A stretch of 64,000 nucleotides of DNA from a bacterium (lineage in GTDB: Bacteria > UBA8248): positions 704,001 to 768,000 of the forward strand of contig OZ241875.1 of assembly GCA_965203325.1 (NCBI GenBank), in the 5' to 3' direction. The stretch's first letter is position 1. Each line of letters starts with the position of its first letter. Positions 1 to 36,099 of the stretch are shown here, in pieces. The translations under genes and the position numbers were made by a program. The notes under the pieces were generated by a model. It was given only the letters and a program-made list of their open reading frames with translations, did no database searches and had not been told where the DNA came from.

Positions 1-669
1 CGGAGCATTGCGCTCTGGCGCGCGCGCCGCGGGATGAGCGCGAGGCGCTTCGGGGTGGGTGCGCTGGGGATTCCCGGCTTCGTGGGCCTGCAGGCCCGGG
101 GGCGGCCCCTGCGGGTCGACACGGCGGACCGGGTGCTCGCGTTCATGGGGTACCCGCCCCTGGGACCGCTCCTGCGGGCCGAGGTCGAGGCGTTTCTCGT
201 GGTGAGCAGGACCAAGGTCTCGATCCTGGGCGAGGAGACCGTGGGGAATCCCTCCTTCGTGGGGAGGCTACGCGGGGGCGTTTCGCCGTATCTCAAGACC
301 TTCGACCGGGTGCGCGCCTGGATGGCGGCCAACGCGACGGGAGAGGAGATCCGCGCCATACGCGAGAGGCTCGCGCACTTGCCCGACCCGTTCGACGGGA
401 CGTGGGACGTCGCCGGGGAACCCGGGGCCGCGGGAGACGTCGATGAACTTGCGGAGGAGAACCACCTGGACACGCGGGAGGCGGCCGCCTGGCTCGGCCT
501 CTCGCCCAAGACGCTCGAGCGCTACCGCGTGAGCGGAGAGGGGCCGGATTTTCTTCGCACCGGATACCGGGTGCGCTACCTGCTCGAAGACCTCGAGAAG
601 TGGGCCTCCGCCCGGAGGTGGACTTCCACGTCCGAGGAGAGATCCGCCCGGAGAAAGAAGAGGCGGTAG
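1..669 (+). CDS. DNA-binding protein with two tandem small HTH-like repeats and a C-terminal excisionase-like (HTH_17/MerR-type) domain; probably 5'-partial
   Basis: C-terminal LDTREAAAWLGLSPKTLERYRVSGEGPDF..RVRY is typical of excisionase-like HTHs. The frame is open from base 1. Confidence 0.7.
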   Translation, partial: RSIALWRARRGMSARRFGVGALGIPGFVGLQARGRPLRVDTADRVLAFMGYPPLGPLLRAEVEAFLVVSRTKVSILGEETVGNPSFVGRLRGGVSPYLKTFDRVRAWMAANATGEEIRAIRERLAHLPDPFDGTWDVAGEPGAAGDVDELAEENHLDTREAAAWLGLSPKTLERYRVSGEGPDFLRTGYRVRYLLEDLEKWASARRWTSTSEERSARRKKRR

Positions 670-698
670 AGAGATATTCGGGATTAGTCGGACGGACT

Positions 699-1571
699 TC
701 ACCGCCCGTAGCGCAGCCTCGCCATCGCGCCCTGTTTCGCGAGTTGTCCCTGCGCGTAGCGCCCCGGCATGACCGGCGACTGCCAGCGCCCGGCAATCTG
801 CATCTCGACCAGCGACGCCCCCGCCGTGGCCAGGCTCTGCGCGCCCCCCACGCGCAGGCTGTGCCCGCTGATGCGCCCCTCCACGCCCGCGGCCTTCCCC
901 CACCGCGCGATGATGCTCCGGATGCTCCTCTCCGTCAGGCGCCCGGGCCGAAGCCGTCCCCCCTTGTACACGCCCCGGAAGAGCGCTCCCTCCTCGAGAC
1001 CCGCGCTCGCCAGCCAGGCCCGGACGCGCGTCACGGTCGGCTCGCCCAGAAACTGCACGACGCCATCGCCCTCCTGGTCCGTCTTCGAGCGGCGGATCAG
1101 CACCGTCTGCTCGTCCAGGTCCACGTCCTCGATGTCGAGCGCCTCGACCTCCGACACCCGGAGCAGGGCGTCGCTCGCCACCGCCACGATCGCCGCGTCG
1201 CGCAGACCGGCCAGGGTCCCCGTCCCCTCGGCCAGCGCCGCCGCCCGGTCCGCCTCCTCCCAGCGCACCCCCACCACCTGGCCCCGGCCCCGCTCTGCGG
1301 CCAGGCGCCTGAAGCCGGCCAGCACCCGCTCCGAGGCCGCCCCCACTGGGGAGGGCCGGCCGTTCAGCTTCGCCCGGAAGCGAAGCGCCGCGACCGCCAT
1401 CGCGGCCACGGCCGCCGAGTGCCCCCCCTCGTAGAGATCCCCCAGGTACGCCGCTATCCCGGCGTCGGTCTCGGGGTTTCCCGAGCGCTCGAACCTCCTG
1501 AGCGCCGTCTCGTACACTCGCCGCGTGTTCTCAGACATCGACGCCTTCGCCAGGTAGGCGGCCGTTTCCAT
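699..1571 (-). CDS. Cre-like tyrosine recombinase
   Basis: SENTRRVY N-terminus, LRDAAIV..LLRVSE (Arg), RRSKTDQ (Lys), GHSLRVGGA (HxxR), GRW..MPGRY (Trp/Tyr as in Cre). The ORF is open to 1736; ATG at 1571 is the likelier start. Confidence 0.9.
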   Translation of the reverse strand: METAAYLAKASMSENTRRVYETALRRFERSGNPETDAGIAAYLGDLYEGGHSAAVAAMAVAALRFRAKLNGRPSPVGAASERVLAGFRRLAAERGRGQVVGVRWEEADRAAALAEGTGTLAGLRDAAIVAVASDALLRVSEVEALDIEDVDLDEQTVLIRRSKTDQEGDGVVQFLGEPTVTRVRAWLASAGLEEGALFRGVYKGGRLRPGRLTERSIRSIIARWGKAAGVEGRISGHSLRVGGAQSLATAGASLVEMQIAGRWQSPVMPGRYAQGQLAKQGAMARLRYGR

Positions 1572-1703
1572 TCCCTGAGGCCGCCCGAGCGCCTCATTAC
1601 GCTCAAGGGCCTCGTCAAATACCAAGTATAGACGACGACGGGGAATTTCCACAAAAAAAGCCGTTTCGCAGGGGAATACCGGCGAAACGGCGGGTTTCTG
1701 GAG

Positions 1704-1725
1704 TCCGATAATTGACGTTATCGGA
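1704..1725. other. lox-like recombination site 1 (TCCGATAA-TTGACG-TTATCGGA)
   Basis: Perfect 8-bp inverted arms around an asymmetric 6-bp spacer, directly upstream of the recombinase gene. Confidence 0.7.
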
Positions 1726-1754
1726 AAGTTAAACACCTCTCACGGCCATGTCAA
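1726..1754 (-). promoter_or_regulatory. Sigma70-type promoter (TTGACA-17 bp-TAACTT) inside the putative invertible segment
   Basis: Perfect -35 (plus-strand tgtcaa 1749-1754), 17-bp spacer, -10 at 1726-1731. Currently points toward the recombinase. Confidence 0.6.
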
Positions 1755-1882
1755 GCGCAATTCCGGGGTCCCCGGAGGGGTTTCGGGCGCCGTTTTGCGC
1801 CTTCTTTCGCTCATCTTTCGCTCATGTGCGGCCCGAATGCCCCCCGAAACGGGTTTTTCGGCGGAAAACGGGGCTTCTGGGG

Positions 1883-1904
1883 GCCAATAACGTCAATTAG
1901 CGGA
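1883..1904. other. lox-like recombination site 2, inverted relative to site 1
   Basis: GCCAATAA-CGTCAA-TTAGCGGA. Its reverse complement matches site 1 at 19/22 positions, with an identical spacer. Confidence 0.65.
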
Positions 1905-2016
1905 CACCAGCCCGGGTTCGAGGCGGCGCATACCGCAGGAATCCGCCTCTCGCGGAAAGACTCACGACCGGCTGCGTCAGCTTGAACCCGAAATCTCGGA
2001 ACAGGGGGCATTCCAA

Positions 2017-5000
2017 ATGAAGAACATTACACGGATCTCGATACTGCCGGCGGCGGCGTTCTGCAGCGCGGCCCGGCGGCGTGAAGTGCGCCCGGCCGGG
2101 GCGCGCACGCCGGCTCCCTCGACATCGGCGGGCTCCAGACGGGCTGACGCCCGCACCGGGCGCGCCCGCGCCCGCCGCCTCTCCCTCCTCCTCCCCGTCC
2201 TCGCGCTGCTGCTCGGCGCGCTCGGCCTGTTCGCCGCCGGGACGGCGGAGGCGGTCCCCGCCCAGCCGCAAGGATTCACGCTCACGCCGGGCAATCAGGT
2301 GCTCATGGCGACGTGGAATGCGGTCACGGATTGGGGCGGACAGAACGCGGACGGTTACAGCCTGCGCTGGAGGGTGAAGGAGCCCGTAGGCAGTTGGTCC
2401 ACCGTTGTCCAGCGCTCCACCTCACAAACTACGTACACGATCACCGGGCTGGTCAACGGCACGGAGTACGAGGTCGAACTCTGGTCGCGCGCCAGCGTTG
2501 GGCAAAACCGGCAGGTGAGCGCGGCCGTGACGGCGACCGGCACGCCCGTGGCGGCGCAGAACAACGCCAACCTGTCCGCCCTGACGGCGGCGACCCACAC
2601 GAGCGCGACGGGCACGTTCACGTCGCTGACGCTCACGCCCTCGACCTTCGCGGCGACCACCACGTCCTACACGGCGTCGGTGTTGAACGCGCGGACGCAC
2701 CTGAAGCTCACCCCGACGGTGGCCGCCACCGGCGCCACGGTGAAGGTGGGCAAGCAGGGGACCACGCTGGCCACGGTCACCAGCGGCTCGGCGAGCGCCG
2801 CCATCGCGCTCTCGGTGGGCGCGAACGCCATCACGGTCGAGGTCACCGCCGCGGACAACACCACGAAGAAGACCTACACCGTGACGGTGACGCGGGCCTC
2901 CTCCTCCGTCTGGTCGGCGACGTTGACGCCGGTGGCAGTCTCAGGGGGAGTCGGCTGCAATAGCGAGACCCTATGCAATACGGCACTGACCGACAACAGC
3001 TTTACGGTCGGCGGCACGAACTACCGTTTTAACACTGTTTTCAACGCCAGTTCGGGTTTGCAAGTAGGCATCACTCCAATTGGAGCAAACGCTGAACTTG
3101 CGGCACTGAAGTTCTGTGTCGGCACAACAGAATATTCGTTTAACCTAGGCGCCACTATTTTACTTTCGAACGACAACCCCGGCTGGACCGCCGGCACCCC
3201 GGTCTCCCTCAGAATCGCCTCGTCCTGCGCGCAGCAGACCACGACGCCGACCCCGACGCAGTCCACCGACGCGACCCTGTCCGGCCTGACGGCGACCCAG
3301 GCCACGAGCGCCTCGGGCCCGTTCTCGGCGCTGAGCATCGGCAACTTCGCCTCGGGCACCACGACCTACGCGGCGTCGGTGGCCAATTCCATAACCCACG
3401 TGAAGCTGACCCCGGCGGTCACCGACTCCGGCGCCACGGTGAAGGTCGGCAAGGGCACGAGCCTGACCACGGTCGCGAGCGGCACGGCGAGCGGCGCTAT
3501 CCCGCTCTCGGTGGGCGCGAACGCCATCACGGTCGAGGTCACCGCCCAGGACGGCACCACGACGCGGACCTACACCGTGACGGTGACGCGCGCGCAGGCG
3601 CAGACGCAGGCCCCCGCCCCCGTCGTCCCGACCGGGCGGGGGGAGACCGTCTGGTCCGCCACCCTGACGGCGCAGAATGTGGTGCCCTCCGTCGTCGTTG
3701 GTTGCACAGGGTCCGGGTCTTCAAGTTGCGCTCTGACGAGCGTGCTCACGGACGACGACTTCGGCCTCTTCGGGAAGACGTTTACGATCACGCAAATTCA
3801 GCAGACGTCTGCGGGGGCCCTCGATATCGGCTTCGACCAGTCAATCTCGACGCAGACGGCGAGGCGCCTGACGCTGCATGTCGGCGACCGCGAGTTTCCG
3901 CTGGCGGAGGCGACTTATTCGTCGGGCAACACTACGGCGACCTGGACCAGCTCCGGCCTGACCTGGTCGGCGAGCCAGCAGGTGCCGCTGCGCCTGACCC
4001 TCGGGCCGCGCTGGAGCGGCGTGGCCTACGAGGGCGGCGGGCTGCTGCCCGGCCCGACCGGGGGCAAGGAGCTGCTGGTCGCCGAGGACGGCTCGGCCAC
4101 CTTCGGGGTCAAGCTGACCCATGCGCCCACGGCGAACGTGACCATCCGGCTGTACAAGTTCGCTCCCGCTGCGATTCACGGGAACGTGAACGCCGTCACC
4201 ATCAGCCCGAAGGAGCTGACCTTCACGCCGGCCAACTACGGCACGGCGCAGACGGTGACCGTCACCGGGGTGCCGGACGGCAACGCCGCCCACGAGCACC
4301 TGTACATCCTGGCCGCGTCGTCGAGCGCGGACGCGAACTACGCGCTTCAGGACGGGCACGAGGCGCTCTTCGTCACCGTGACCGACGGCGCAGGCGCGGT
4401 GAAGGTGGGGCTCTCGCGCGGCGCGGCGCGCGAGTCGGGCGACGGCACGGCCACGAATGCGCCCGTGACGGTGTGGCTCAACCGCGCGTCGACCTCCCAG
4501 GTGCGGGTGACCTACGCGACGGCGCCCGACACCTCCGCGCCGTCGAACAAGCGGGCGACGGCGGGCTCGGACTACACGCACGTCTCCGGCACGCTCGTCT
4601 TCTCGCCGGGCCAGACGCGCAAGACGGTGCAGGTCCGGATCCTCGACGACAGCGTCGAGGATTCGGGGGAGAGCTTCCGCTTCGTGCTGTCGAACGTGCA
4701 GGGGGCGACGCTGGAGCAGGGCTACGGCCGTGCGACTATGGTCATCCTGAACGACGAGGCGCAGATCGACGGGCTGTCGGTCGAGGGCGCGCCGGGCGCG
4801 GGCGGGCCGTGGGCGAAGCTCGACATCGGCACGTTCGCGCCGGAGACGGCGGACTACGCGGTGACGGTGCCGCACGGGACGACGCACGCGCGGGTGACGC
4901 CGGAGACGGCGGACGAGGACCTGCTGCTCTGGGCGGGCAGCGGCACGGGGCTGGCGTCGGTGCGGAGCGGCCAGGCGGGCAGCACGGTGGCGCTCGCGGT

Positions 5001-7485
5001 CGGCGAGAACGTGCTGATGGTGCAGACGCGGGCGGCGACCGGCAAGCGGCAGACCTACCGGGTGACGGTGACGCGGCAGGCGCGCCCCGGGGTCGCGGTG
5101 TCGCTCTCGGCCACGCCGAACCCGGTGGGCGAGGGCTCGCCGGTCACGGTGCGGGCGACGCTGGCGGAGGCGCTGGCGCAGGCGGTGACGATCCCGCTGC
5201 GGACGACGCGGGGCACGTCGGAGGCCGGGGACCACGGGTCTCTCGCGTCGATCGCGATTCCCGCCGGCTTCACGTCGGCCACGGGCACGGTGTCGACGGC
5301 CGAGGACGGCGACGGGGACGACGAGACGTTCACGGTGGCGCTGGGGAGCCTCCCTGCGGGCCTGACCGCGGGCGCCGCGTCCTCGGTGCGGGTGACGATC
5401 ACCGACAACGGGCGGCAGGCGCCGGATCCGCTGACGGCGCGGCTCAGGGGCGCGGTCGCGGAGCATGACGGGGAGACGCCGTTCATGCTGGAGCTGGTGC
5501 TGAGCGAATCGCTCGATTCGGGGAGCCGGTGGCCTTCGGCTGCGTCGTTCGCGGTCAAGGGCGGGAGCGTGGAGAGCGTCCGGCGGTTCCGGCCGTACCG
5601 GTACCAGGTCCACGTCAAGCCGAAGTCGTGGAAGGACGTGACGGTCACGCTGGCGGGCGGGCGCGCCTGTAGCGAAGAGGGCGCGATCTGCACGGCCGAC
5701 GGGAGGTCGGTGTCGAACACGTCGACGATGACCGTGGGCGGCCCGGTGCGGATCCGGATCGCGGGCGCCAGGGCGAAGGAAGGCAAGAACGCATCGCTCG
5801 ACTTCGCGGTGACGCTCAACCGCGCGGCAGGGCATGAGGTCTCGGTGGACTACGCGACCGAGGACGACACGGCGGCGGCGGGGTCGGACTACACGGCCAC
5901 GTCGGGCACATTGACCTTCGCGGCCGGCGAAACGGCGAAGACGGTCTCGGTTCCGGTCCTCGACGACGCTATCGACGAGGGCAAGGAGGTCATGCGGCTG
6001 CTGCTCTCGAACCCGAAGGGGGCGTATCTCAGGAACGTCCACACCCGGGCGCGGGGGGTCATCACGAACGACGACCCGCTGCAAAGGATGTGGCTCGCGC
6101 GCTTCGGGCGCACGGCGGCGGGCCACGTCGCCGAGGCGATTGACGGACGCCTGTCGGGCGGCGCCGCCGCGGGCGTCGTGCTGGGCGGCCACAGCCTCTC
6201 CGGCGGGGCGGAGCGCGAGGCTATCGAGTCGCGCCTCGCCGAGGCCCTGCTTGAGGAGAGGGAGGCCCGGCTCGGGCGCGGCGGGGAGGCGCCGGCATCC
6301 CCGGTGCGCGAGGTCGCGATGTCCGATCTCCTGCTCGCGAGTTCGTTTCACATGGCCTCGTCCGGCGGCGGGGACGCGCCGGGGGGGCTCTGGTCGCTGT
6401 GGGGCCGGGGCGCGCGCTCCTCGTTCGAGGGCGCCGAGGGCGATCTCTCGCTGGAGGGCGACGTGACGACGGCGACCGTGGGCTTCGACTACGAGCGGGC
6501 GCGCTGGCTGGTGGGCGTGGCGCTCTCGCGAAGCGCGGGCGACGGCTCGTACAAGGCGGGCGGCGCGTGCGATACGGGCTGCGCGGGCGAGGTGGAGAGT
6601 ACGCTGACGGGTGTCTACCCCTACGCGCGCTACCGTGTGAGCGGGACGTTCTCGCTCTGGGGCGCTGTGGGCCACGGGCAGGGGGAGATGACGCTCACGC
6701 CCGGGGGGTCGTCCCCGGTGGAGGCCGACGTGGCGATGGGCATGGCGGCGGCGGGGGCGCGCGGGGTCGTTCTGCCCGCGCGCGAGGCGGGCGGGTTCGA
6801 GCTCGCGCTCCGCGCGGACGTCCTGGTGACGAACACGCGCTCGGACGCTGCGGCGGGCCTCGCGGAGACCGAAGCGCAGACGAGCCGCGTGCGCCTCGTG
6901 CTGGAGGGTTCGCGCTCGCTCAGGTTCGGCGAAGGCCTGCTGACGCCCTCGCTGGAGATAGGGTTCCGGAACGATTCGGGCGACGCGGAGACGGGCGGCG
7001 GGGTGGAGGCCGGCGGCTCGGTCCGCTGGGCCTCGGGGGCCCTGACGACGGAGGTGCGCGCGCGCGGCCTGCTCTCCCACGGCGCCGGCGGTTATGAGGA
7101 ATGGGGCGTGAGCGCCTCGGTGGAATATGCTCCGGGCTCCGGGGGACGGGGCCTCACGCTTCGGGCGGGATCCTCGTGGGGCGCCTCCGCCGGCGGTGCG
7201 GAGCGGCTCTGGTCGCAGGCGGCGGGCCTGACGCCTGCCGGTGGGTTCGAGCCGGGCGCCGCTGGCTTCGAGGCCGAGGCGGCCTGGGGCCTGGACGCCC
7301 CCCGGGGGCTGCTGACGCCCTATACGGGCGTGGCGGTCTCGGGGAACGCAGAGACCTGGCGCGCGGGCGCGCGGTGGAAGCCCGGGGCGGCCACGGAGGT
7401 GAGCCTCGAGGCGAGCCTCACCGAACAGGCGGGCGGCGGGAGACCAGAAGGCGGCCTCCTGCTCAGAGGCTCGAAGCGGTGGTAG
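2017..7485 (+). CDS. Large autotransporter-type adhesin (FN3, cadherin-like beta-sandwich repeats, Calx-beta domains, C-terminal beta-barrel)
   Basis: Extended signal peptide ending AEA. FN3 (YTITGLVNGTEYEV); repeated LSVGANAITVEVTA.D.TT..TYTVTVTR; Calx-beta (AGSDYT..SGTL.F..G.T.KTV.V.ILDD). Amphipathic barrel strands ending in W. Confidence 0.88.
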   Translation: MKNITRISILPAAAFCSAARRREVRPAGARTPAPSTSAGSRRADARTGRARARRLSLLLPVLALLLGALGLFAAGTAEAVPAQPQGFTLTPGNQVLMATWNAVTDWGGQNADGYSLRWRVKEPVGSWSTVVQRSTSQTTYTITGLVNGTEYEVELWSRASVGQNRQVSAAVTATGTPVAAQNNANLSALTAATHTSATGTFTSLTLTPSTFAATTTSYTASVLNARTHLKLTPTVAATGATVKVGKQGTTLATVTSGSASAAIALSVGANAITVEVTAADNTTKKTYTVTVTRASSSVWSATLTPVAVSGGVGCNSETLCNTALTDNSFTVGGTNYRFNTVFNASSGLQVGITPIGANAELAALKFCVGTTEYSFNLGATILLSNDNPGWTAGTPVSLRIASSCAQQTTTPTPTQSTDATLSGLTATQATSASGPFSALSIGNFASGTTTYAASVANSITHVKLTPAVTDSGATVKVGKGTSLTTVASGTASGAIPLSVGANAITVEVTAQDGTTTRTYTVTVTRAQAQTQAPAPVVPTGRGETVWSATLTAQNVVPSVVVGCTGSGSSSCALTSVLTDDDFGLFGKTFTITQIQQTSAGALDIGFDQSISTQTARRLTLHVGDREFPLAEATYSSGNTTATWTSSGLTWSASQQVPLRLTLGPRWSGVAYEGGGLLPGPTGGKELLVAEDGSATFGVKLTHAPTANVTIRLYKFAPAAIHGNVNAVTISPKELTFTPANYGTAQTVTVTGVPDGNAAHEHLYILAASSSADANYALQDGHEALFVTVTDGAGAVKVGLSRGAARESGDGTATNAPVTVWLNRASTSQVRVTYATAPDTSAPSNKRATAGSDYTHVSGTLVFSPGQTRKTVQVRILDDSVEDSGESFRFVLSNVQGATLEQGYGRATMVILNDEAQIDGLSVEGAPGAGGPWAKLDIGTFAPETADYAVTVPHGTTHARVTPETADEDLLLWAGSGTGLASVRSGQAGSTVALAVGENVLMVQTRAATGKRQTYRVTVTRQARPGVAVSLSATPNPVGEGSPVTVRATLAEALAQAVTIPLRTTRGTSEAGDHGSLASIAIPAGFTSATGTVSTAEDGDGDDETFTVALGSLPAGLTAGAASSVRVTITDNGRQAPDPLTARLRGAVAEHDGETPFMLELVLSESLDSGSRWPSAASFAVKGGSVESVRRFRPYRYQVHVKPKSWKDVTVTLAGGRACSEEGAICTADGRSVSNTSTMTVGGPVRIRIAGARAKEGKNASLDFAVTLNRAAGHEVSVDYATEDDTAAAGSDYTATSGTLTFAAGETAKTVSVPVLDDAIDEGKEVMRLLLSNPKGAYLRNVHTRARGVITNDDPLQRMWLARFGRTAAGHVAEAIDGRLSGGAAAGVVLGGHSLSGGAEREAIESRLAEALLEEREARLGRGGEAPASPVREVAMSDLLLASSFHMASSGGGDAPGGLWSLWGRGARSSFEGAEGDLSLEGDVTTATVGFDYERARWLVGVALSRSAGDGSYKAGGACDTGCAGEVESTLTGVYPYARYRVSGTFSLWGAVGHGQGEMTLTPGGSSPVEADVAMGMAAAGARGVVLPAREAGGFELALRADVLVTNTRSDAAAGLAETEAQTSRVRLVLEGSRSLRFGEGLLTPSLEIGFRNDSGDAETGGGVEAGGSVRWASGALTTEVRARGLLSHGAGGYEEWGVSASVEYAPGSGGRGLTLRAGSSWGASAGGAERLWSQAAGLTPAGGFEPGAAGFEAEAAWGLDAPRGLLTPYTGVAVSGNAETWRAGARWKPGAATEVSLEASLTEQAGGGRPEGGLLLRGSKRW

Positions 7486-7634
7486 GGGCGGACCGGGGGG
7501 AGCGCAGGCCGTTCCTCCCGGCCCGCTTCGTCGCGATCCCCCTCCCGGCAGGTCGTCTCGCCGGCAGGCGGCGGGAGGGGCGCGCGTCCCGCTCTCCCCG
7601 CGTGTTTTCAGAGGGTGGGGGGTTTCCGTAGGCC

Positions 7635-7994
7635 GTGAAAGCTCAGTATCCTGTTGATATTATTGAGAAAGAATCCTTACTTCCTAGTTCGTTTGGAATC
7701 CATGATCTGCGATATGTAATCAAAGCGGAAGCGGGCGAATTACAACTCTTGGGTATCTCACCGTGCTCGTGTCCGTATGCGTTCAGTGTAAGTGTTCATC
7801 CAAGCCGTGATGGAAGCACCCAAATAGCGGTAGTTCGGTGGCTGTCTGAACGTAGCTGGTCCGGCCTAATTCTTCGGTACCACCCAAGTCCGCAGAATAT
7901 TTGGGCAATTTCGGTTCATGGATGGCATTCCGACATCGACTTTCTTCTCGTAGAGGTCACCGTCAACTCGTCTCTGTTTGGCTCTGAGGCCTAA
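7635..7994 (+). CDS. Hypothetical protein (doubtful)
   Basis: 119-aa ORF at the start of the low-GC segment; no motif. Confidence 0.25.
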   Translation: MKAQYPVDIIEKESLLPSSFGIHDLRYVIKAEAGELQLLGISPCSCPYAFSVSVHPSRDGSTQIAVVRWLSERSWSGLILRYHPSPQNIWAISVHGWHSDIDFLLVEVTVNSSLFGSEA

Positions 7995-8701
7995 TCCGTC
8001 ACGGTTTGGTTGAACGATTACCGTTCAGTCATAGGGTGATATCGTCACTGGTACCGAAGGCAATTATTGGAATAGTGCGGCGTAGTCGGTTTAGACCTCT
8101 ACTTTTCTGAACGCCATCACCCCGTGACTGAACGGTAACTCGTGTCCGATCTTCCTCCAAAATCCAGCCAGGAACAACTTATTATTGCCATTCTCCATCA
8201 CTCTGAAACATCTATCCAAGACCCCCCGGTCCGCGTTCATATTCAGCGGAATTCCTAGTTTAAGGCCTTGACATTTCCGGTATCTTGGCAAGAAGTGCTG
8301 AACCTGCTCGGGGAAAAAGAAATGGGAATTACTCACATGACTTAACAAGCATCGACGCTATTACTTGAATGTGGAAACCATCCCAGATGGGAGGTTATTA
8401 CCATGAATCGAGCAAAACCAGCTAAGGAGTTTTGATTCTGGTTTTATTGCCTAGGTTTTCTAGTCCCCTTGCTCCTCGTTATCATCACTTTTGCCCTCGG
8501 GCACCTTTGGGGTACCCCTTGGGGGAGTTGTGGTCCCGGGATTTGAATCCGGATCATTTATTGGGATGATATCTTTTGCTATTGCTTTCATTGGCATCCT
8601 CTGCCGTCATGTTCCCTACGGCCATTGCCTCAAAAAAATGATGACCGCAATTTAACCTCCCCCAACAAGTAGTAAGACATTAATTCGCATAGATGTTTTT
8701 A

Positions 8702-10480: not shown

Positions 10481-11344
10481 ATGACGGATGTAATGAAAAA
10501 TGATCAAGAGCCAGCTACCCAAGCATTGACTCAGGTTGAAGCGAACATATCGGGATCAGCAAGTACTCATAAAGCATGGAATCCTGCTGATTTAGACCAA
10601 CTAATCGCAGAAGCAAAAGCTTTGGCACTTTATGTTGCTCGACATGGTGACAGCCTGTCTGATGGTGACAGCTTGTCTGATAACGATCAAAAGCTCTATG
10701 ACGAGTTGCTCTTGGCTATCGCCAGCATCGAATCGTCCCGTTCGTCAGAACACTGGCGCTCCTTAATGTCGGCTTATGCGAAAATCACGGCCATAACCTA
10801 CCAAAAGCGGGGCGTGAACGGTCGCACCATTTTGGACACTCAGACAAAGCGTGTGTTCTCAATAAGAAACCGACCGACGATAATAGGGGTAGTGCTTTTC
10901 TTCTGCGCGCTGATTCTTGAAAGCCTGATGCGCTGGAGCGGTGGGGTATCGGATGTCAATAAGCTCACTGGTTTCCAAATGCACGTCTATTACCAAATCA
11001 GTTCTCTTTCCTCTCTCTTGGTGCCTGCTTTCTGGGGTGGACTCGGTGGTTGCATCTTCTTGACGAAGCGTATCTCTGACAAGCTGTTCGACATGGCCTA
11101 TGAGGAAGCGCGTATGCGCGGAGACGTCACGCGGATATTCCTCGGCGCCATGCTTGGCGTCGTTATTGTGGTCCTTTTTTTTCCAAATTTCACCGAGCAG
11201 GTCAAGCTCGGGGAAATTACCCTAGCTCCAGCGACAGCGGCTTTTATTGCCGGGCTCGGTGTGAAGCCAGTCTATGCAGCATTTGAGTCCTTGAGCCAAG
11301 AGTTAGCTCGCCGTTTCCAGGGAAGTAGGAGCAATCCAAAGTGA
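10481..11344 (+). CDS. Membrane protein, soluble helical N-terminus plus about 4 TM helices
   Basis: 287-aa ORF with CAGGAG RBS. Hydrophobic segments with Gly motifs (WGGLGGCI, LGAMLGVV, AFIAGLG). Stop overlaps the next start (GTGA). Confidence 0.8.
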   Translation: MTDVMKNDQEPATQALTQVEANISGSASTHKAWNPADLDQLIAEAKALALYVARHGDSLSDGDSLSDNDQKLYDELLLAIASIESSRSSEHWRSLMSAYAKITAITYQKRGVNGRTILDTQTKRVFSIRNRPTIIGVVLFFCALILESLMRWSGGVSDVNKLTGFQMHVYYQISSLSSLLVPAFWGGLGGCIFLTKRISDKLFDMAYEEARMRGDVTRIFLGAMLGVVIVVLFFPNFTEQVKLGEITLAPATAAFIAGLGVKPVYAAFESLSQELARRFQGSRSNPK

Positions 11345-12336
11345 AAGAAACCTGGCTGATCATCAACTTCGCATTTGTATCAATCTTGCTTTTCATAGGT
11401 ACATCGGCCCAAGCAGCAGGTAAGCCGATGCGTCCACCACCCAAAGGCTATGATCACGCGAAGTTCGCTCCGAAAGCGGATATCTACAGAGCATTTCACG
11501 GCTTCACGATCAGTTTCGATTCTAAGGATGACGACGACAGCGAATATGGCCCGGACTTACTCAGAGTTCCTCACTGGGTAAGTCATGAAGTGCGTCGTTG
11601 GGAGCCCTCTGCAGATGACCGGGACAACGACGAGGCTTGGTGCCTCGACACTCTAAAGAGCCGGCCGACTTGGTTTACTGACCCCGACTTACATGCCACT
11701 GGTGTAGCCCCCAAAGACAACAGTTATCGGCACAGTGGTTTCGACCGCGGGCATATGGCAATGAAGCTACTTGTAGAGAGGCTCGACCAAGATGCGGCTT
11801 ATAATACCCACACGCTACTGAACGCGATCCCACAGCGGCCGAAGTTTAACCAGGGTATTTGGCAAAATTTAGAATACCTGACCGGTGCTTGGGCCCAAAA
11901 CTATGGCAAGATATGGGTGATCCAGGGACCAGTGTTCTACAAGGGCAAGATACCGACCTGGATCGGCGATGAGGGCGAGTTCAAGGTCGCGGTACCGGAC
12001 GCCGCCTTCAAAATCGTAATCCGCGAAAAAACCAAAGATGAGATAAGTAAAGGGGCAAATTGGGCTAAAGAAGCTCCCGAAGTCCTAGCTTTCTTATACC
12101 CACAAGTAGGGCCGGGATATTTCGGAAAGAGTGAAGAATATCGACATGAGCGATTCCTGACCACAGTCGATGAGATTGAAGAATTAACTGGTCTTGACTT
12201 CAATTTGTCTAAGAACCGTACCATCGAGAAGAAAGTGGAACGCCGACGTGCCAAGGCACTCTGGGATCCGCCTGTTGTGGATCTAAAGCAGCATCGACTC
12301 TTTCTATCCGGCTGCAGGAAAGGTAGTGGACAGTGA
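11341..12336 (+). CDS. Exported DNA/RNA non-specific endonuclease (NucA/EndoG-like His-Me finger)
   Basis: Signal peptide (..SAQA); GFDRGHMA motif; NAIPQRPKFNQGIWQNLE; IEELTGLDF. Confidence 0.9.
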   Translation: MKETWLIINFAFVSILLFIGTSAQAAGKPMRPPPKGYDHAKFAPKADIYRAFHGFTISFDSKDDDDSEYGPDLLRVPHWVSHEVRRWEPSADDRDNDEAWCLDTLKSRPTWFTDPDLHATGVAPKDNSYRHSGFDRGHMAMKLLVERLDQDAAYNTHTLLNAIPQRPKFNQGIWQNLEYLTGAWAQNYGKIWVIQGPVFYKGKIPTWIGDEGEFKVAVPDAAFKIVIREKTKDEISKGANWAKEAPEVLAFLYPQVGPGYFGKSEEYRHERFLTTVDEIEELTGLDFNLSKNRTIEKKVERRRAKALWDPPVVDLKQHRLFLSGCRKGSGQ

Positions 12337-14921: not shown

Positions 14922-15421
14922 CCGAGTCTCCTAATGCCAGCGTTCCTTCTTAGTGCTGGGATTTCATCATCAACGATTGCCGCAAAATCACCGGTAAGGA
15001 ATTGGATGAGAGACACTTCGTGGCCAGTATAATTTCCTATGGCCGCGGACCTGAATATATCAATCCCTGTCTGCGATAATTCCACAAGACCCGTGTGTAG
15101 AGTTTCCACAGAAACGATCCCCTTTCCCGACATCGCGCGCAGGGCTTCCTTTTGAATCGGTTCCATCTTATTAAAAAGCAAGGGAGCGGCAGGATATTGC
15201 AAAAATGATTTCTCCGGCCGTGAAATCATTAACGCGGAAAACGCTTTTCTTGTATCTCTAGACATTGTGCATCTATGAAGAAGGGGTGGATTCGCGAAAA
15301 AGAAATCTGAAATGTACAAGCGTTCGATGCCAGGGGGTGTCTTGAAAGAAAGGAGCAATCCTCCTAGGCGTCGAATGCATGAGAAAACATCCAGCTGGGG
15401 ATACCAAAGCCTAACGTTCAT
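14918..15421 (-). CDS. lmuC: Lamassu/ABC-3C middle component (LmuC)
   Basis: Small ORF (LWYPQLDVFSCIRRL..LYISDFFFANP) coupled by ATGA overlaps to both neighbours. Confidence 0.75.
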   Translation of the reverse strand: MNVRLWYPQLDVFSCIRRLGGLLLSFKTPPGIERLYISDFFFANPPLLHRCTMSRDTRKAFSALMISRPEKSFLQYPAAPLLFNKMEPIQKEALRAMSGKGIVSVETLHTGLVELSQTGIDIFRSAAIGNYTGHEVSLIQFLTGDFAAIVDDEIPALRRNAGIRRLG

Positions 15422-16611
15422 GATGAAGAATCCCATCGTATGTGGCATTGCTCAGTAAGAAAATACAATGCGCTTAAAATCGATTTTGCACTGAAGTTCG
15501 TCCCACCAATTTTCTTTGTCGATAAGGAGTCAATTATCTTCTCTTGTATAGCAGCACGAATTTCATCGTCCGAGGCTGATTTACAGATAAGGGGATGATA
15601 GACATGGGTAACAAATCGCGTTTCGACTTCTGAAAGAAGATTGTCATGGTCCTCCCGCGCTGCGGTGAAAAGACCCGTTTTTGTATATCGTCTAGCAAAA
15701 TGATTCTGAGCATCGTTGGCGTAGTTATATTCGTGCTCCCGTCCCGCTTCAATTAGCTTTGCAAGTAGATCTCGTCGATCTCCAAGGCTCTTTTCGGTGT
15801 AGTCTTCGGATTCTACGATGAATTGTTCCTGCGAAGAGGTAGCCATCTCTGCCGAAATTATAACGTTGCGGATATGTCGTTTGACCCCAAGATATACGAT
15901 ATCCTCCCGGTTTCGTGGTTTACAAATGTTGATATGATCTTTATCGACAGGTACCGGATTTGATTTACTAACACCGGGATCCGCAGCTTCTCGAGAAACA
16001 ACCACTCCCATTTTTTTTGTGAGATGTTTTTCATAATAGACAGCAGTAGAAAGATCTTCGCGACTATTGGCTAGGGTGCGATAGTGTTCATTTAGGTCGT
16101 ATAGAAACCCTGTATCATCCGACAGAAGTTTGATTTGTTTTGACGTGAAGGGAACAACATCAAGAATGTTAGCCATTGCTGGCGCTGTATGTGGTGTAGA
16201 CAAGAAAACGACTAATTTCGTAGCATGATAAATCCTTTTCCAATCTTCATCTTCAGCTTCAAAGGACTTCCGGAGAAGTAATTTTGTAAGAATGCCGCCG
16301 AGACTATGTGTGACGAATACAATAGGGAGACGACCTATCTCATTTCCAGCAAACAGCTCGAGAACGTTCGCGGCGCGCTCGTACATATCCATTTCTTTCT
16401 TTGCCCATTTCTCGAATATGCTCGTTGGATAACCTAGAGTGAAAACAGAAATGCGATTCAAATCGTTTTGGAGCCATTGTGGCCAAAAGTCATCTCCAGA
16501 TTCGTCAGTCCACGTTTCTTTCGCATCTCCCGTTAATCCGTGGACAAAAATTACGTCGATGAGCGGGGAGTCTCCGGAAGCGATACGATGGAATAGAGGT
16601 TCGTCACTCAT
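15418..16611 (-). CDS. lmuA: Lamassu effector (LmuA): alpha/beta hydrolase (lipase-like) fused to ABC-3C C-terminal domain
   Basis: DVIFVHGLTG, nucleophile elbow THSLGG, KDHINICKP. The C-terminal LYFLTEQCHIRW ending is typical of ABC-3C CTDs. Confidence 0.8.
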   Translation of the reverse strand: MSDEPLFHRIASGDSPLIDVIFVHGLTGDAKETWTDESGDDFWPQWLQNDLNRISVFTLGYPTSIFEKWAKKEMDMYERAANVLELFAGNEIGRLPIVFVTHSLGGILTKLLLRKSFEAEDEDWKRIYHATKLVVFLSTPHTAPAMANILDVVPFTSKQIKLLSDDTGFLYDLNEHYRTLANSREDLSTAVYYEKHLTKKMGVVVSREAADPGVSKSNPVPVDKDHINICKPRNREDIVYLGVKRHIRNVIISAEMATSSQEQFIVESEDYTEKSLGDRRDLLAKLIEAGREHEYNYANDAQNHFARRYTKTGLFTAAREDHDNLLSEVETRFVTHVYHPLICKSASDDEIRAAIQEKIIDSLSTKKIGGTNFSAKSILSALYFLTEQCHIRWDSSS

Positions 16612-17265: not shown

Positions 17266-18309
17266 TTAACCTTGACGCTTTTGGGCAGGCCGCTGTCTAC
17301 CGCCATCCTTGGAAAGTGGCACTGCATCATCGTCGTCGCGGCCGTTCCAGAGCAATCCTGGATGCGGAACGCGATAGTATCCATCATCCTTTTTCAGGGT
17401 TCTTGGCCTCCCGGGAACGGCTGTCGCTTCGAACCGTCCTTTCGCTCCTTGAAGATACGCCTCTACGATTTCTGCGCATATCCACTTTCGGCCCAGTCGC
17501 TCGGCTACTTCGCCCGTAACACAACTCCCTCCGAAAGGATCCAGAACCATGTCTCCCGGATCTGTAACCATGCGGATAAAGTACTCGGGTAGTGCGGCGG
17601 GGAAACGAGCGGGGTGCGGTTTGATATCTTTTTCTCTGCAATAGCGCATGTAGCCGCTGTTGCTTTCTGTATTCGGAATCGCGATCAGGTTTGGCGGAAT
17701 CGCCGCGCCATTGTCGATTGTGAATTTCTCGCTGATGTCATGCCCCGACGGCCGCAACTTGGCTTTGTAGCCATTGCTCAGTAGTGCCTTCATGCTATCG
17801 CTATAAGGCTGCAAGACACGGCGATTGCTGGCACGTGGCCAAGGTGTCTTGGACAGCCACCAAACGGTATTGATCCCGTCCTTTACACGTATGCGACGGA
17901 CGTTCACCCATTCGGCCGGCGTAGGCAGCTTTGATGGGTTCCACCAGTAAAACTCCTGGGCGAGATGAAAATCGTATTCCTCGCATAGCATGATCAGCAG
18001 CTTGAAGTGATAAAGGCTCCGTACCGGAAGCCCCGGTTTCCATGCGCCGCCGAGGTCAATGACAAGGCTGCCATCGTCTTTCAGGATGCGGTGAAACTGT
18101 TCTGCGAAATCCCTGAACCATTCAAGATAGGCATCCTCTTGCTCGTTCCCATAATCCTTCTTGCGCGTCAGCGCAAAGGGTGGGCTAGTCATGATTAGAT
18201 CGACTGATGCTTTCTCACGGCATTTCATCATCGCCAGGCTGTCGCCGTGATAGATGCACCCGAGATGAGTCTGATGAAAAACAACCAGAGGCTGCTCAGT
18301 AGTCATCAT
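17266..18309 (-). CDS. Beta-class N4-cytosine DNA methyltransferase (M.PvuII-like)
   Basis: TSPPFALTRKKDYGN catalytic motif precedes HPARFP..VLDPFGGS (motif I); closely resembles M.PvuII as I recall it. Confidence 0.9.
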   Translation of the reverse strand: MMTTEQPLVVFHQTHLGCIYHGDSLAMMKCREKASVDLIMTSPPFALTRKKDYGNEQEDAYLEWFRDFAEQFHRILKDDGSLVIDLGGAWKPGLPVRSLYHFKLLIMLCEEYDFHLAQEFYWWNPSKLPTPAEWVNVRRIRVKDGINTVWWLSKTPWPRASNRRVLQPYSDSMKALLSNGYKAKLRPSGHDISEKFTIDNGAAIPPNLIAIPNTESNSGYMRYCREKDIKPHPARFPAALPEYFIRMVTDPGDMVLDPFGGSCVTGEVAERLGRKWICAEIVEAYLQGAKGRFEATAVPGRPRTLKKDDGYYRVPHPGLLWNGRDDDDAVPLSKDGGRQRPAQKRQG

Positions 18310-18319
18310 TTAGCCTCCC

Positions 18320-19687
18320 TCAGAGTTCCAGCTTTTTCAGGTTCATCGCATGCCGCGCCTCGCGTTCAAAGGCCCGCAGAATCGCGGCGGGACGTTCGCT
18401 GATGGTGCTCAAGTCGCCACCGTCTAGCATGACAATCGCAAGATTCGAGTCGGCCATAATCTTGTTGGCGTAGCGGCGCGCCTCGCTGCCGATGTCCCCT
18501 GTCGTAACGATGACGATCACGTTGCTCTTGAGGAAGTGCGTGAGTCCGACTTCTTTTGCCACATCGTCCAGCGAGACGCGGGCGGTGTTCTTGCACTGCA
18601 CCTGCCACCTGAAATACACGAGGCGAGCGCTTTCGAAGATCAGATCAACCTCCGCACCTCCTGTCTGGTTCGCCCGGAGGCGGGTTGCGACATAGGTCAT
18701 GTCGAGAAGGCGCATGATTTTGAAAGCGAGCGCCTCCAAAGCAAGCCCCGCCCTGTAACGATTCTTGTCATCTATCTCCTTTAGAATGGCGGAGAGCGGC
18801 GTACGCAAGAGTGCTAGAAGCTTCGGATCGGTTTGTCCTTTGAGCTGCTCAAGGAGTGGGTCGACAACATCCGCGATGAGTTTCGGTGTTGGGGCAACTT
18901 GAAAGGGCTTCGCTCCACGCCCCGTGGTCGTTTTCTCGGCGGTGATATAACCAGCTTCCTCCAGATCGTTGAGGACGAGCTTCGGTAAGCTCTTCTCAGG
19001 GAACTTGACACCATAGGTTGCAGCAGCGAGCTTGGCAATCTCATTTGCGCCCTGGGGCTCGCTCGTTCCTGTATTGGCCAGGGCACGCAAGAAAGCGCGT
19101 TGTTCGGGTGTAAGACCAGCCAGAACTTCGAACTCATCGGGATTAAGCCCGAGGATGTCCTCAACTCGATGCGGGTCGATCTGCCAACGACTTCCGACAA
19201 AGACACCGGCCTTGGCAAGCCAGAGGCGCATCATGCTCGGATGTTTCCCACCTGAAGGGTAATGAACGCCACGCGCGGCGAGTCCCTGGCGTAGCGTGGT
19301 GAGATTCACCTGCTCTCCCGCAGCCACCATGTCCTGAATGCAGCGTACGAGCGTCATGCCGTGAAGGTTTAGAAGAATATGTTTTGCGAGGCACTCATAG
19401 AGAGCGGCCTCGTCGTCTATTAAGGTGAGAAGCTGTTGTCCAAAAGGTGTCAGCGACGCTTGGCGGTCAATGATGCCATAGGCGATCATCCCGAGCTTCG
19501 TGTTGTTGGCAAGTTTGCCGCGGTTATATTCACTAGTCTTGTGTCCCTCGAAATAAGCTTCCCGCACTTCATTTTCAAAGGCACGCCAGTCCCCTCCGTG
19601 AATGTCGGCGAACTCCAGCACGACCGGAAGCTCGATCTGCGAGGGAGAGAACTCACTGCCGAAGGGAAGGTCGCTTTTCTTTCTCAC
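18320..19687 (-). CDS. Restriction endonuclease with C-terminal Mrr-like PD-(Q)xK domain
   Basis: GLALE..GAEVDL..WQVQCKN..DDVAKEVG..IVTTG; lies directly upstream of the MTase. Confidence 0.8.
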   Translation of the reverse strand: MRKKSDLPFGSEFSPSQIELPVVLEFADIHGGDWRAFENEVREAYFEGHKTSEYNRGKLANNTKLGMIAYGIIDRQASLTPFGQQLLTLIDDEAALYECLAKHILLNLHGMTLVRCIQDMVAAGEQVNLTTLRQGLAARGVHYPSGGKHPSMMRLWLAKAGVFVGSRWQIDPHRVEDILGLNPDEFEVLAGLTPEQRAFLRALANTGTSEPQGANEIAKLAAATYGVKFPEKSLPKLVLNDLEEAGYITAEKTTTGRGAKPFQVAPTPKLIADVVDPLLEQLKGQTDPKLLALLRTPLSAILKEIDDKNRYRAGLALEALAFKIMRLLDMTYVATRLRANQTGGAEVDLIFESARLVYFRWQVQCKNTARVSLDDVAKEVGLTHFLKSNVIVIVTTGDIGSEARRYANKIMADSNLAIVMLDGGDLSTISERPAAILRAFEREARHAMNLKKLEL

Positions 19688-20419: not shown

Positions 20420-21862
20420 ATGAGCGACCAACCTCCTGTCTTTTCCTCTGAAAAACTTATTCAAGATGAGAAAATCACTTTCGTTATAGACACCAATATC
20501 TTAATTGGGTTTGAGCCAATTGCTCAGATCGATTGGCGACTCCTCTGCCCGAATGCAAGATCAATAGGCATAGTAGTGCCGAATACGGTAGTCCGTGAGA
20601 TGGACGGACATAAGAAGAGTAATATTAATCGTAATCGTAAACGCGCCCTTGACTTCAACAAGTTCCTGAAAAAGATCGAAGATGGGAACGGTAAAGATAC
20701 TACATTGCAAAGCAATCACGTCGCTCTGCGCCTAATACTTATGCCGCTCTATGCGCAGAATAATCTCCCTCTAGAAAAGCTTTCGCTTGAAATCGCCGAT
20801 GATATAATCGTCGCTGAGACTCTGAAATTTACTCAGGATCATCCAGATGCCATTTTTCTTGCCGATGATAACAATGCACGCCGAACGGCGCGTGAGATGG
20901 GCATCAAGGTTGCACGTCCAGCAGAAGAGTGGCGGCGCAAAGAGCCAAGAGATTGGCGCGACGCTCGAATTGAGGAGCTGGAACGTCAACTCGGTGCAAT
21001 GCCAGAACTTTCGCTTGAGTTGCCCACGGGAGACGTCAATACGGTCATCTTTGAAATGCTTCACCCCAAAGCAATTCCCGACGCATTTTGCGACCGCGTA
21101 GCTAATTTGATCCTCGAAAGGAACCCGGGCTTTAGCCGGGACGAACTTATGGAGCGCCACAACTTGTCAGTTGTGCAAAAAAAACGCACATTTTCTGTTT
21201 CTGATTTTTTCTCCGTCTCGGTGAACGACATCGACAAATATTGTAACGACTACCAGGAATTCAAAGAACGAGTCATCTCATGGTCGAAACGGCTGCCTGA
21301 GTTACTGAATCAAATCGATTTTGTTGCGCCAATACAACTAGAGATTGCCAACGAAGGTCACGCTTTTGCGGAGCATGTTGAGGTGACCGTTTCAGCTTCT
21401 ACGGGATACCGTTTCATCTCTGATGATTTCGTCCGTTCCTATCTCGAACTCAGGCACAAGCCGCCGGATCCGCCGTCGAGAGTTAGAAGCATTTCACATA
21501 TCCCGAATTTCTTTGAGCAGCAACGGCTTCACCAAAAAGACCCGTCCAGATTTTATTTGCATGATAAACCCGGCAAGAATCGAGTGGTATCTGATATTTC
21601 TTATGAATGCGAGCGCTTTCGGCATGGCGGTGTGGCTGTTCTTTCCAGTGCTTTGCTCCAGGAAAACAATGCGCCGTCAGGTGGATTATTGACTGTTCGG
21701 GCGTCCAGCGCCACTTTAGCCGACCCGGTCGAAGTTAACTGTCCGATAAGAGTAGAACAGGGGCAACGGTCGAAGAACTTCAAAGAATATCTTTGGAGTC
21801 GACTATTTTTCTTTCCTGAAGAGGTACGCGATTCAATTTCGACAGCTCTTGAGGATTTTTGA
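20420..21862 (+). CDS. PIN-domain protein with long unknown C-terminal region
   Basis: FVIDTNILI, VPNTVVREMD, ADDIIV and LADDNN acidic PIN motifs. Confidence 0.85.
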   Translation: MSDQPPVFSSEKLIQDEKITFVIDTNILIGFEPIAQIDWRLLCPNARSIGIVVPNTVVREMDGHKKSNINRNRKRALDFNKFLKKIEDGNGKDTTLQSNHVALRLILMPLYAQNNLPLEKLSLEIADDIIVAETLKFTQDHPDAIFLADDNNARRTAREMGIKVARPAEEWRRKEPRDWRDARIEELERQLGAMPELSLELPTGDVNTVIFEMLHPKAIPDAFCDRVANLILERNPGFSRDELMERHNLSVVQKKRTFSVSDFFSVSVNDIDKYCNDYQEFKERVISWSKRLPELLNQIDFVAPIQLEIANEGHAFAEHVEVTVSASTGYRFISDDFVRSYLELRHKPPDPPSRVRSISHIPNFFEQQRLHQKDPSRFYLHDKPGKNRVVSDISYECERFRHGGVAVLSSALLQENNAPSGGLLTVRASSATLADPVEVNCPIRVEQGQRSKNFKEYLWSRLFFFPEEVRDSISTALEDF

Positions 21863-35906: not shown

Positions 35907-36099
35907 CCCGCCTCCTGAATCTGTAATCAAATCGCATACGTGCGGCATCAAACTGGGGGGTATTCAAGCATATGTATGACGAAAATGCAAGGGGTAGCTG
36001 GGTACGGAATAACAGAAATATGGTATTATAAACAATCGGTTATCGTAGACATACGTAGTCAATCATACTATCGCGCCGACACCGGGTTCATGACAATGA

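Follow-up and report, generated by a model that had tools for sequence, protein, structure and literature searches.

A probable promoter inversion switch with a Cre-like tyrosine recombinase, one of 16 paralogous switches in a sponge-associated bacterium

Introduction

Promoter inversion is a familiar source of phase variation in gut bacteria and pathogens, and invertible promoters worked by tyrosine recombinases are a known kind, represented by fim, the Tsr enzymes of Bacteroides and RecV of C. difficile. The locus described here raises the question of whether a short segment between the divergent genes of a tyrosine recombinase and a giant surface protein is such an invertible promoter, and which of the two genes it would control. 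It lies in a 64,000-nucleotide stretch, hereafter the window (positions 704,001 to 768,000 of contig OZ241875.1, assembly GCA_965203325.1; G000:C1:704001-768000 in our numbering), from an uncultured sponge-associated bacterium whose 4.39-Mb genome forms a single contig with 60.4% G+C. Surface proteins of the eukaryote-like kind, with fn3, cadherin and related domains, are much discussed and untested in sponge symbiosis.

The likely answer is that the segment is a promoter inversion switch, or inverton, run by Cre-like tyrosine recombinases, and that it is one of 16 paralogous switches in the genome. Inversion at its sites is strongly supported by the comparison of related copies rather than by sequencing reads, while promoter activity and the direction of control are deduced from motifs. 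A literature search at the level of records returned no report of such switches in sponge symbionts; one inverton survey covers 62,291 genomes together with marine metagenome-assembled genomes (MAGs) (PMC11602134).

Recombination sites and their copies

The elements on which the argument turns are the following, in window coordinates:

1698..1725 (core 1704-1725), no strand: site 1, with arm TCCGATAA, spacer TTGACG, arm TTATCGGA and an outer extension CTGGAG at 1698-1703
1726..1882, no strand: interior of the invertible segment, 157 bp, present in 16 copies and flipped relative to both flanks in copies c09, c12 and c15
1877..1910 (core 1883-1904), no strand: site 2, with arm GCCAATAA, spacer CGTCAA and arm TTAGCGGA

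A reading of this DNA made from its letters alone (the sequence-only reading) had proposed two inverted 22-bp sites at these places. Read directly, the cores are indeed identical at 19 of 22 positions in reverse complement and share one spacer, and a repeat finder lengthens the inverted repeat to 27 nt at 89% identity (1698-1724 / 1884-1910). The same reading saw a resemblance between the left flanks of the two sites, which is recovered as a direct repeat of 32 nt at 72% identity (1680-1711 / 1859-1890). This likeness is explained in large part by the half-sites, of about 14 bp each, three of which have CTGG in common; at site 2 the CTGG extension is found on both half-sites (1877-1880 and, on the other strand, 1907-1910). 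The pattern TCCGATAA-N6-TTATCGGA with up to three mismatches matches the 64-kb window three times where shuffled sequence predicts 0.11, and none of 100 shuffles gave three matches; the third match, at 57952, has three mismatches and lacks the TTA core. Across the genome, motifs of this type amount to 16 pairs and 10 chance-like matches, and nothing else.

A search of the genome with the segment interior found its 16 copies at 91-100% identity, designated c01 to c16, where c01 is the window's own. A family search over 42 genomes placed the switch in 14 of them including the host (12 of the 22 within the genus), and 45 places were retrieved for comparison after exclusion of a 72-nt contig end (G010:C151), a match to the left flank only (G008:C28) and weak 32-nt matches (G015 and G030). 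A TAA-N6-TTA pair with exactly complementary spacers, 168-180 bp apart, was present at 43 of these 45 places, and the other two are contig ends that break within the switch. The 16 host copies and the 43 from relatives make up a set of 59, in all of which the sites occur as an inverted pair at 168-180 bp and never singly. One contig of a relative, G017:C1 (1.59 Mb), both begins and finishes within a switch (L063, L068), which may mean that a circular record happens to be opened there or that the assembly broke at a variable site.

The 59 copies give a consensus for each half-site: GGGTTTCTGGAG-TCCGATAA for the left outer, GGTGTTATATTT-TCTGATAA for the left inner, GGGCTTCTGGGG-TCCGATAA for the right inner and CCCGGCCTGGCC-GCCGCTAA for the right outer. 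CTGG at 11-14 nt from the spacer is common to three of them, and the fourth overlaps the −10 element of the promoter described below. The architecture is thus about 14 + 6 + 14 bp, with half-sites (CTGGnnTCCGATAA) on both sides of a 6-bp crossover spacer, and either orientation of the segment leaves one site of the pair with a degenerate half.

The spacer sequence varies from copy to copy. Eight variants occur in the host genome (TTGACG in four copies, TTGCCG in three, TTGATG, TTGCTG and TTGCCA in two each, TTACTG, TTGTCG and TTGCTA in one each) and 23 across the 59 copies. The two spacers of a pair are nevertheless exact reverse complements in 15 of 16 host copies and in 58 of 59 overall; 10,000 rounds of partner shuffling gave a mean of 3.4 exact pairs and a maximum of 11. 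Within the host genome, the spacers have a diversity of 0.254 and the segment interior one of 0.082. As tyrosine recombinases require identical crossover regions in both partner sites, this covariation is the pattern predicted for working sites. The 59 copies are related and hence do not represent 59 independent events, but 23 matched variants cannot be explained as inherited chance. The only switch with unequal spacers is c14 (G000:C1:3371526-3371726; TTGCCA against TTGCCG, its site 1 accounting for the second TTGCCA in the tally), which may be a locked switch or one in transition from one spacer type to another.

Orientation of the segment

The segment lies on the same strand as both flanks in 13 of the 16 host copies, c01 among them, and on the opposite strand in c09, c12 and c15. 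Four of the 43 copies from relatives are also flipped (L055, L067, L093, L095), so that seven of 59 face the downstream gene. Orientation was read from the flank marker ATACCG in 32 of the 59 copies and from BLAST strands in the other 27, with L094 assigned from arm identity alone.

The breakpoints of these inversions can be located. All 13 unflipped host copies carry TTATC(G/A)GA at the inner arm of site 1. In c09, c12 and c15 site 1 instead ends in GGC (TTATCGGC or TTATTGGC), which is the inner arm of site 2 in reverse complement, and at the start of site 2 stands TCCGATAA or TCTGATAA, likewise the inner arm of site 1 in reverse complement. The inner half-sites have therefore been exchanged exactly as predicted for a crossover in the spacer. 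Together with the flipped copies in host (3/16) and relatives (4/43) and the 58 covarying spacer pairs, this supports the proposal that a Cre-like tyrosine recombinase recombines the two sites with each other and that the segment between them inverts. The comparison of homologous loci, suggested earlier as a check, found paired sites in every copy of the set and both orientations among them.

The predicted invertible promoter

Three elements lie within the segment:

1727..1754, minus strand: predicted invertible promoter, −35 TTGACA at 1754-1749 and −10 TTAACT at 1732-1727 after TGT, or TAACTT at 1731-1726 with 17-nt spacing
1786..1810, plus strand: small hairpin GGCGC-CGTTTT-GCGCC followed by a T-rich tract, behind the promoter and facing the opposite way, called terminator-like in c11
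1839..1884, no strand: hairpin-forming inverted repeat next to site 2, conserved in 59 copies

The promoter TTGACA-17-TAACTT, read leftwards through site 1, had been described before and is present on the minus strand at 1754-1749 and 1731-1726. TTGACA occurs exactly once in each of the 59 interiors, which speaks for a conserved promoter, and conservation along the segment is highest in the block CCATGTCAAGCGC with the stretch up to the −10. The consensus of the family has TTGACA, 16 nt and TATATT preceded by TG, a form that a promoter scan scores 11 of 12 in paralogue c11.

As the promoter of c01 points away from the giant gene, that gene is probably OFF in the assembled state. The sequence-only reading predicted that flipping would direct the promoter at the giant gene, and this arrangement exists in the naturally flipped c09, where the order is promoter, site, leader and ATG of the giant gene. 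The leader of c01 is as follows:

1905..2016, plus strand: leader of the giant gene, 112 nt, with AGGGGG 8 nt before the ATG

Its fold has a z-score of −1.98, and it contains no T run. An Rfam scan of 1500-2200 gave no matches at E up to 1.

Separation of the promoter from the recombinase gene

Two elements stand between site 1 and the start of the recombinase gene:

1653..1691, minus strand: intrinsic-terminator-like element, stem 1691-1679 / 1672-1660 (13-nt inverted repeat, 92%), seven T at 1659-1653
1625..1652, minus strand: candidate recombinase promoter, GTGGAA at 1652-1647, 16 nt, TATACT at 1630-1625, deduced by eye and unreported by a strict scan

The hairpin, GCCGTTTCGCCGG-TATTCC-CCTGCGAAACGGC followed by TTTTTTT on the minus strand, begins 12 nt past site 1. 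The fold of 1640-1722 on this strand (83 nt) has −31.8 kcal/mol (z −5.4), a value matched by none of 200 shuffles. Seven or eight T directly after a hairpin of −16.6 to −21.8 kcal/mol are found in 11 of the 16 host copies, with sequence variants; c04, c05, c12 and c13 have other, weaker hairpins before the T run, and the flank of c06 is of another kind. In the full set of 59 copies a run of at least five T is present in 43 and a hairpin of −16 kcal/mol or stronger in 19. A terminator function of 1653-1691 would agree with these features. Behind the hairpin and 47 nt ahead of the recombinase ATG stands GTGGAA-16-TATACT, and TATACT or TATATT with TTGGAA or GTGGAA is kept in left flanks of the recombinase type. 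With a hairpin and T7 on one side and on the other the opposite-facing hairpin at 1786-1810, a putative block to read-through, the invertible promoter looks insulated on both sides, and the transcript of the OFF state would be only about 70 nt long.

This bears on the most distinctive claim of the sequence-only reading, a self-limiting toggle in which the promoter now drives the recombinase and inversion would shift expression to the adhesin, so that the switch feeds back on its own enzyme. The promoter does aim at the recombinase gene in 13 of 16 host copies, and intrinsic terminators leak, so that some read-through is possible. The layout nevertheless did not hold up, as the 13-pair hairpin with its T run separates site 1 from the recombinase start and the recombinase has a promoter-like motif of its own beyond the terminator. 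The same switch anatomy also occurs at seven loci with a dead recombinase and three without any, two of these ten (c12 and c15) being flipped, and the promoter is kept where the recombinase gene is missing altogether (c06, c12, c13). An either-or toggle is accordingly an improbable account of the locus.

The recombinase

The candidate enzyme is encoded next to site 1:

699..1571, minus strand: Cre-like tyrosine recombinase, 290 aa, PF00589 at E 5e-19 and 69.2 bits against a cut-off of 27.1

The gene most likely extends from 1571 to 699 on the minus strand. The label 'Cre-like', used in the sequence-only reading, is justified in that the closest solved relatives are Cre: the first 17 PDB matches, over residues 60-286, are to Cre or Tre (E 5e-13 to 9e-11), ahead of a XerC-like protein at 1e-8 and also of XerA. 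The best Cre score is low, at 52 bits, and the NCBIfam models for XerA, XerC, XerD, XerS, FimB/E-type recombinases and integron integrases all score far under their cut-offs (XerA 67 against 220). The label is thus fair as a description rather than as a family name. The stretches LLRVSE, RSKTD, GHSLRVG, GRW and GRY align with the matching stretches of Cre and are kept in all six intact paralogues; they hold the catalytic R, K, H-x-x-R, H/W and Y.

Intact recombinase genes stand at six of the 16 loci (c01, c04, c05, c07, c09, c11). Seven others (c02, c03, c08, c10, c14, c15, c16) share one internal deletion, by which nt 1-34 are joined to 697-873 of the 699-1571 piece, and from this shared deletion it follows that a dead recombinase has been copied around the genome. 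At the remaining three (c06, c12, c13) the gene is wholly missing. Since two of the ten loci that lack an intact recombinase (c12 and c15) are flipped, the six intact enzymes probably act in trans on every one of the 16. A relic of a recombinase C-terminus was also found at −356 to −162 of the window (L096:3644-3838, plus strand), upstream of the helix-turn-helix (HTH) gene described below, with MQLAGRRQS where the intact protein has EMQIAGRWQS. The relic and the 3' end of the intact gene form a 127-nt inverted repeat in most cassettes, at 72% identity in c01 and up to 82% elsewhere.

A model of the switch and its alternatives

Taken together, the evidence suggests a model in which two inverted lox-like sites would bracket a 157-bp segment with a strong promoter of the sigma-70 type. 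In the OFF state this promoter would fire leftwards through site 1 and be halted by the hairpin and its T run before reaching the recombinase gene, which would have its own promoter. In the ON state the inverted promoter would read through site 2 and the 112-nt leader into the giant gene. The enzymes that the six intact copies encode would act in trans on every locus, and the spacer would vary by locus yet stay matched within each, as strand exchange demands. Ongoing switching at c01 itself would be expected from this model.

Several observations weigh against this reading. A strict promoter and terminator scan of 1400-2300 returned no promoter-like and no terminator-like element; the promoter, the terminator and the direction of control are all motif-based. 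The −10 of c01 matches the consensus at 3 of 6 positions only, and c01 may be a weak switch or have a weaker promoter. Among the more distant relatives the T run follows a weak hairpin or none: −16 kcal/mol is reached in 19 of the 59 copies, and 16 of the 59 lack a run of five T. Orientation differs between paralogues and species, which leaves room for old, fixed inversions, and misjoins at repeats are possible in a metagenome assembly with 16 near-identical cassettes, whose assembled orientation is that of the majority or of a chosen path. The two orientations were not both seen at c01 in Logan unitigs of about 100 nt over 1000-3200 from four runs, and in these runs no contig spans from the unique flank into the switch. 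They belong to 20 sequencing runs that match the locus, from seven studies of sponge and marine metagenomes and none of them of RNA. One contig in one of the four runs has an opposite-strand joint from 1722 to 1885, indistinguishable from c09 and c15, which share the spacer. A metagenome contig collection gave no match for the flipped form or for the present form, the locus being absent from that collection. A switch at G017:C1:730392 was considered as an orthologue of c01 and rejected, the alignment being limited to parts of the cassette; at the true orthologous site G017 carries a different cassette, so that the orientations are not comparable at the same locus.

The appearance of both orientations across paralogues and species, never within one locus, would also follow if the inversions were old and fixed and c01 no longer switched, and both the spacer mismatch of c14 and the three arm positions at which site 2 of c01 departs from site 1 could be read in this way. 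Yet 58 exact spacer pairs in 23 variants need continuing selection or repeated exchange, the six intact recombinases retain their catalytic motifs and the spacers of c01 itself match perfectly, which makes fixed inversions an unlikely explanation. The two hairpin blocks in the segment (1786-1810 and 1839-1884) recall the cwpV switch of C. difficile, which works via terminator and leader structure. A promoter outside the segment would then be needed, with inversion making or breaking a leader terminator; but there is no right-facing promoter-like motif left of site 1 or in the leader, and it is the TTGACA box with the stretch to the −10 that forms the best-conserved block, so that we give this mechanism little credence. 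Finally, the cassettes are multi-copy and apparently mobile, and instead of inversion the sites could be there for integrating or excising the cassette or for resolving dimers. This is the least credible of the alternatives, given that the sites always form inverted pairs 168-180 bp apart, in all 59 copies and never singly, and that the left junction of the cassette lies elsewhere, in a different repeated element. Promoter inversion by Cre-like recombinases is therefore the reading retained in what follows.

The genes under putative control

The gene towards which the flipped promoter would point is the following:

2017..7485, plus strand: giant surface protein, 1822 aa, with fn3, three Cadherin-like and two Calx-beta domains (Pfam) and a predicted C-terminal outer-membrane barrel, autotransporter-like, of about 400 aa

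Its N-terminus, read by eye, has a long signal-like hydrophobic stretch ending in AEA. The sequence-only reading called the protein an autotransporter, which is plausible on the strength of ESM atlas matches, homologues and a barrel model, while the Pfam autotransporter domain is missing from the protein itself. For the last 423 residues, 29 of 30 ESM atlas matches are autotransporter beta-domain clusters (score 0.96), and 7473 relatives were found, in which the region is always C-terminal in large proteins. PF03797 is passed by five of 22 homologues of the C-terminal part and gave no match in the giant protein itself, even at E up to 10. An AF2 model of the barrel (pLDDT 70.7) shows about 19-20 strands after a helix, where the classical type Va autotransporter barrel has 12. 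With TM normalised on the target, it compares with BrkA and EspP at 0.60-0.66 and with the set of BrkA, EspP, Hbp, NalP and AIDA-I at 0.45-0.66; it also matches larger barrels poorly. An F-actin-capping match of the C-terminal 423 aa in a PDB sequence search (E 0.005) is weak, probably spurious, and was set aside. ARAGORN places a tRNA-Ala(cgc) at 6499-6570 inside the giant open reading frame (ORF), probably a false positive in G+C-rich coding sequence.

Three groups of genes stand behind the 16 switches. Group I, like the gene of c01, is found behind c01, c03, c08, c09, c10, c15 and c16. Group II, with five fn3 domains, He_PIG and a PF03797 barrel, is found behind c02 (PF03797 at E 6e-13) and c14. 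Group III comprises genes for 620-1070 aa without Pfam domains (for example L102:615-2903) behind c04-c07 and c11-c13, for which weak ESM atlas leads (0.88) point to clusters that partly carry TbpB_B_D. The group I gene is split into two ORFs (about 1000 and 807 aa) by an identical frame change in c03, c08 and c16 (L098, L103, L111), which might mark a pseudogene, result from a programmed shift or be a sequencing error. One long ORF is present at all the flipped host loci, c09, c12 and c15.

Genomic context and distribution

On the far side of the recombinase gene, and tail to tail with it, lies a further gene of the cassette:

1..669, plus strand: 3' part of an HTH_17 gene, 239 aa, starting 50 nt before the window; Pfam HTH_17 at E 1e-7, excisionase type

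The 239-aa ORF is kept in most of the cassettes, standing beside c01, c03, c07, c08, c09, c11, c14, c15 and c16, and its product might be an accessory factor or a regulator.

The repeated unit extends from about −1000 to +8000 in window coordinates and has 70% G+C against 60% for the genome. Its left neighbours (hydrolase/NIL and DsbA) occur in every one of 23 genomes of the genus, and in five relatives they adjoin the homologue of the window from about 36,100 onward directly. Because these five join the two flanks, the intervening DNA is an insertion of about 37 kb. The placement of the locus on a mobile island, proposed earlier, thus agrees with a strain-specific insertion; a short core (ATCGTATT-like) is common to both of its ends, and the corresponding place in G017 is taken by another switch cassette. 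The insertion and the features within it are:

−880 to ~36,100 (G000:C1:703120-740100): insertion, with the switch cassette at its end, absent from five relatives
11341-12336: Endonuclease_NS, in a low-G+C defence-like block
15418-16611: ABC-3C CTD9, same block
17266-18309: methylase, same block
18320-19687: Mrr, same block
20420-21862: PIN, same block
28539-31376: TrwC relaxase
33554-34729 and 34731-35951: two Arm-DNA-bind integrases

A plasmid collection gave no match for 1-8000 of the window. An intergenic element with repeated AATTTATCG and TTTTCAGGAAT units occurs at −960 to −875 of the window and at about 60 places in the genome, and the 19-mer AAACCCCGTGAATTTATCG has 61 genomic matches at up to three mismatches. 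The left junction lies at an identical position within this element in c01, c02, c03 and c15, as if the cassettes inserted at a fixed point of a ~60-copy element.

Relatives of the recombinase reach well beyond the genus, with 79-96% identity in MAGs of which one is labelled Nitrospinota, 73% in a Binatia MAG, 47-55% in Latescibacterota and 42-46% in Poribacteria. Four Latescibacterota loci (L022, L023, L024, L036) carry TTTCCGATAA-N6-TTATCGGAAA paired at 279-285 bp with complementary spacers (ATCCAC/GTGGAT and others), the distal site having one degenerate arm. The pair lies about 200 bp upstream of the recombinase homologue in L022-L024 and about 1.4 kb from it in L036; the HTH gene is absent at these loci. 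At L023, the sole locus scanned for its neighbour, the switch faces a gene for a SusC-like TonB-dependent receptor. The Binatia locus (L025) has a different 20-nt inverted repeat, and six Poribacteria loci have no paired sites within flanks of 2.5 kb on either side of the gene.

Comparison with known systems

What is new here is the census of 16 loci, the covariation of the spacers, the insulation by a putative terminator, the recombinase genes that are dead, the setting on an island and the junction of the cassette. Sixteen recombinase-linked switches before proteins of this type suggest variation of the surface in the manner of Bacteroides, and the covarying spacers illustrate cleanly, in nature, the demand of tyrosine recombinases for identical crossover regions. 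Ready-made, mutually orthogonal recombination sites for one enzyme could also be drawn from them. A wider reading is possible and is offered tentatively: the switches may form a natural heterospecific lox-like set, in which a shared pool of Cre-like enzymes acts on common arms and private, matched spacers for each locus or small group. Loci could then flip independently without scrambling the chromosome, which would allow combinatorial phase variation of giant eukaryote-like adhesins toward the sponge host, carried by a mobile cassette with a fixed insertion point in a ~60-copy element and with representatives in two or more phyla of sponge-associated bacteria.

The fimS switch of E. coli type 1 fimbriae, with FimB and FimE, resembles the system proposed here in that a tyrosine recombinase is encoded beside a short invertible promoter segment and turns a surface-structure gene ON or OFF. 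FimB and FimE are small proteins of about 200 aa that work with 9-bp repeats and host factors, whereas here a 290-aa Cre-like enzyme would act on lox-like sites with palindromic arms and a 6-bp spacer at 16 loci per genome, and the recombinase gene, read away from the switch, is apparently shielded from it by a terminator.

The likeness of the proposed switches to those of Bacteroides fragilis lies in many invertons per genome, in outer surface proteins as their targets and in recombinases encoded beside the switch. Weinacht et al. are said to have found in 2004 that B. fragilis invertible promoters are served by locally encoded tyrosine recombinases (Tsr), and the global invertase of this species is Mpi. 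The Latescibacterota site pair upstream of a SusC-like TonB-dependent receptor is also Bacteroides-like. Phylum and recombinase clade differ between the two systems; the spacers here differ between loci and covary within each.

With Cre/loxP of phage P1 the switches share palindromic arms and an asymmetric spacer whose orientation decides on inversion, and sites whose spacers are unlike should not recombine together, as with the engineered heterospecific sites lox511 and lox2272. The sites here are of about 14 + 6 + 14 bp and not 13 + 8 + 13, the system is chromosomal, multi-copy and devoted to gene control, and the enzyme is not an orthologue of Cre (52 bits). RecV of C. difficile, finally, is a tyrosine recombinase that acts in trans on several surface-protein switches, much as is proposed here. 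In that case a single enzyme serves switches that are unlike in sequence and mechanism, whereas the present genome has several near-identical enzymes and switches.

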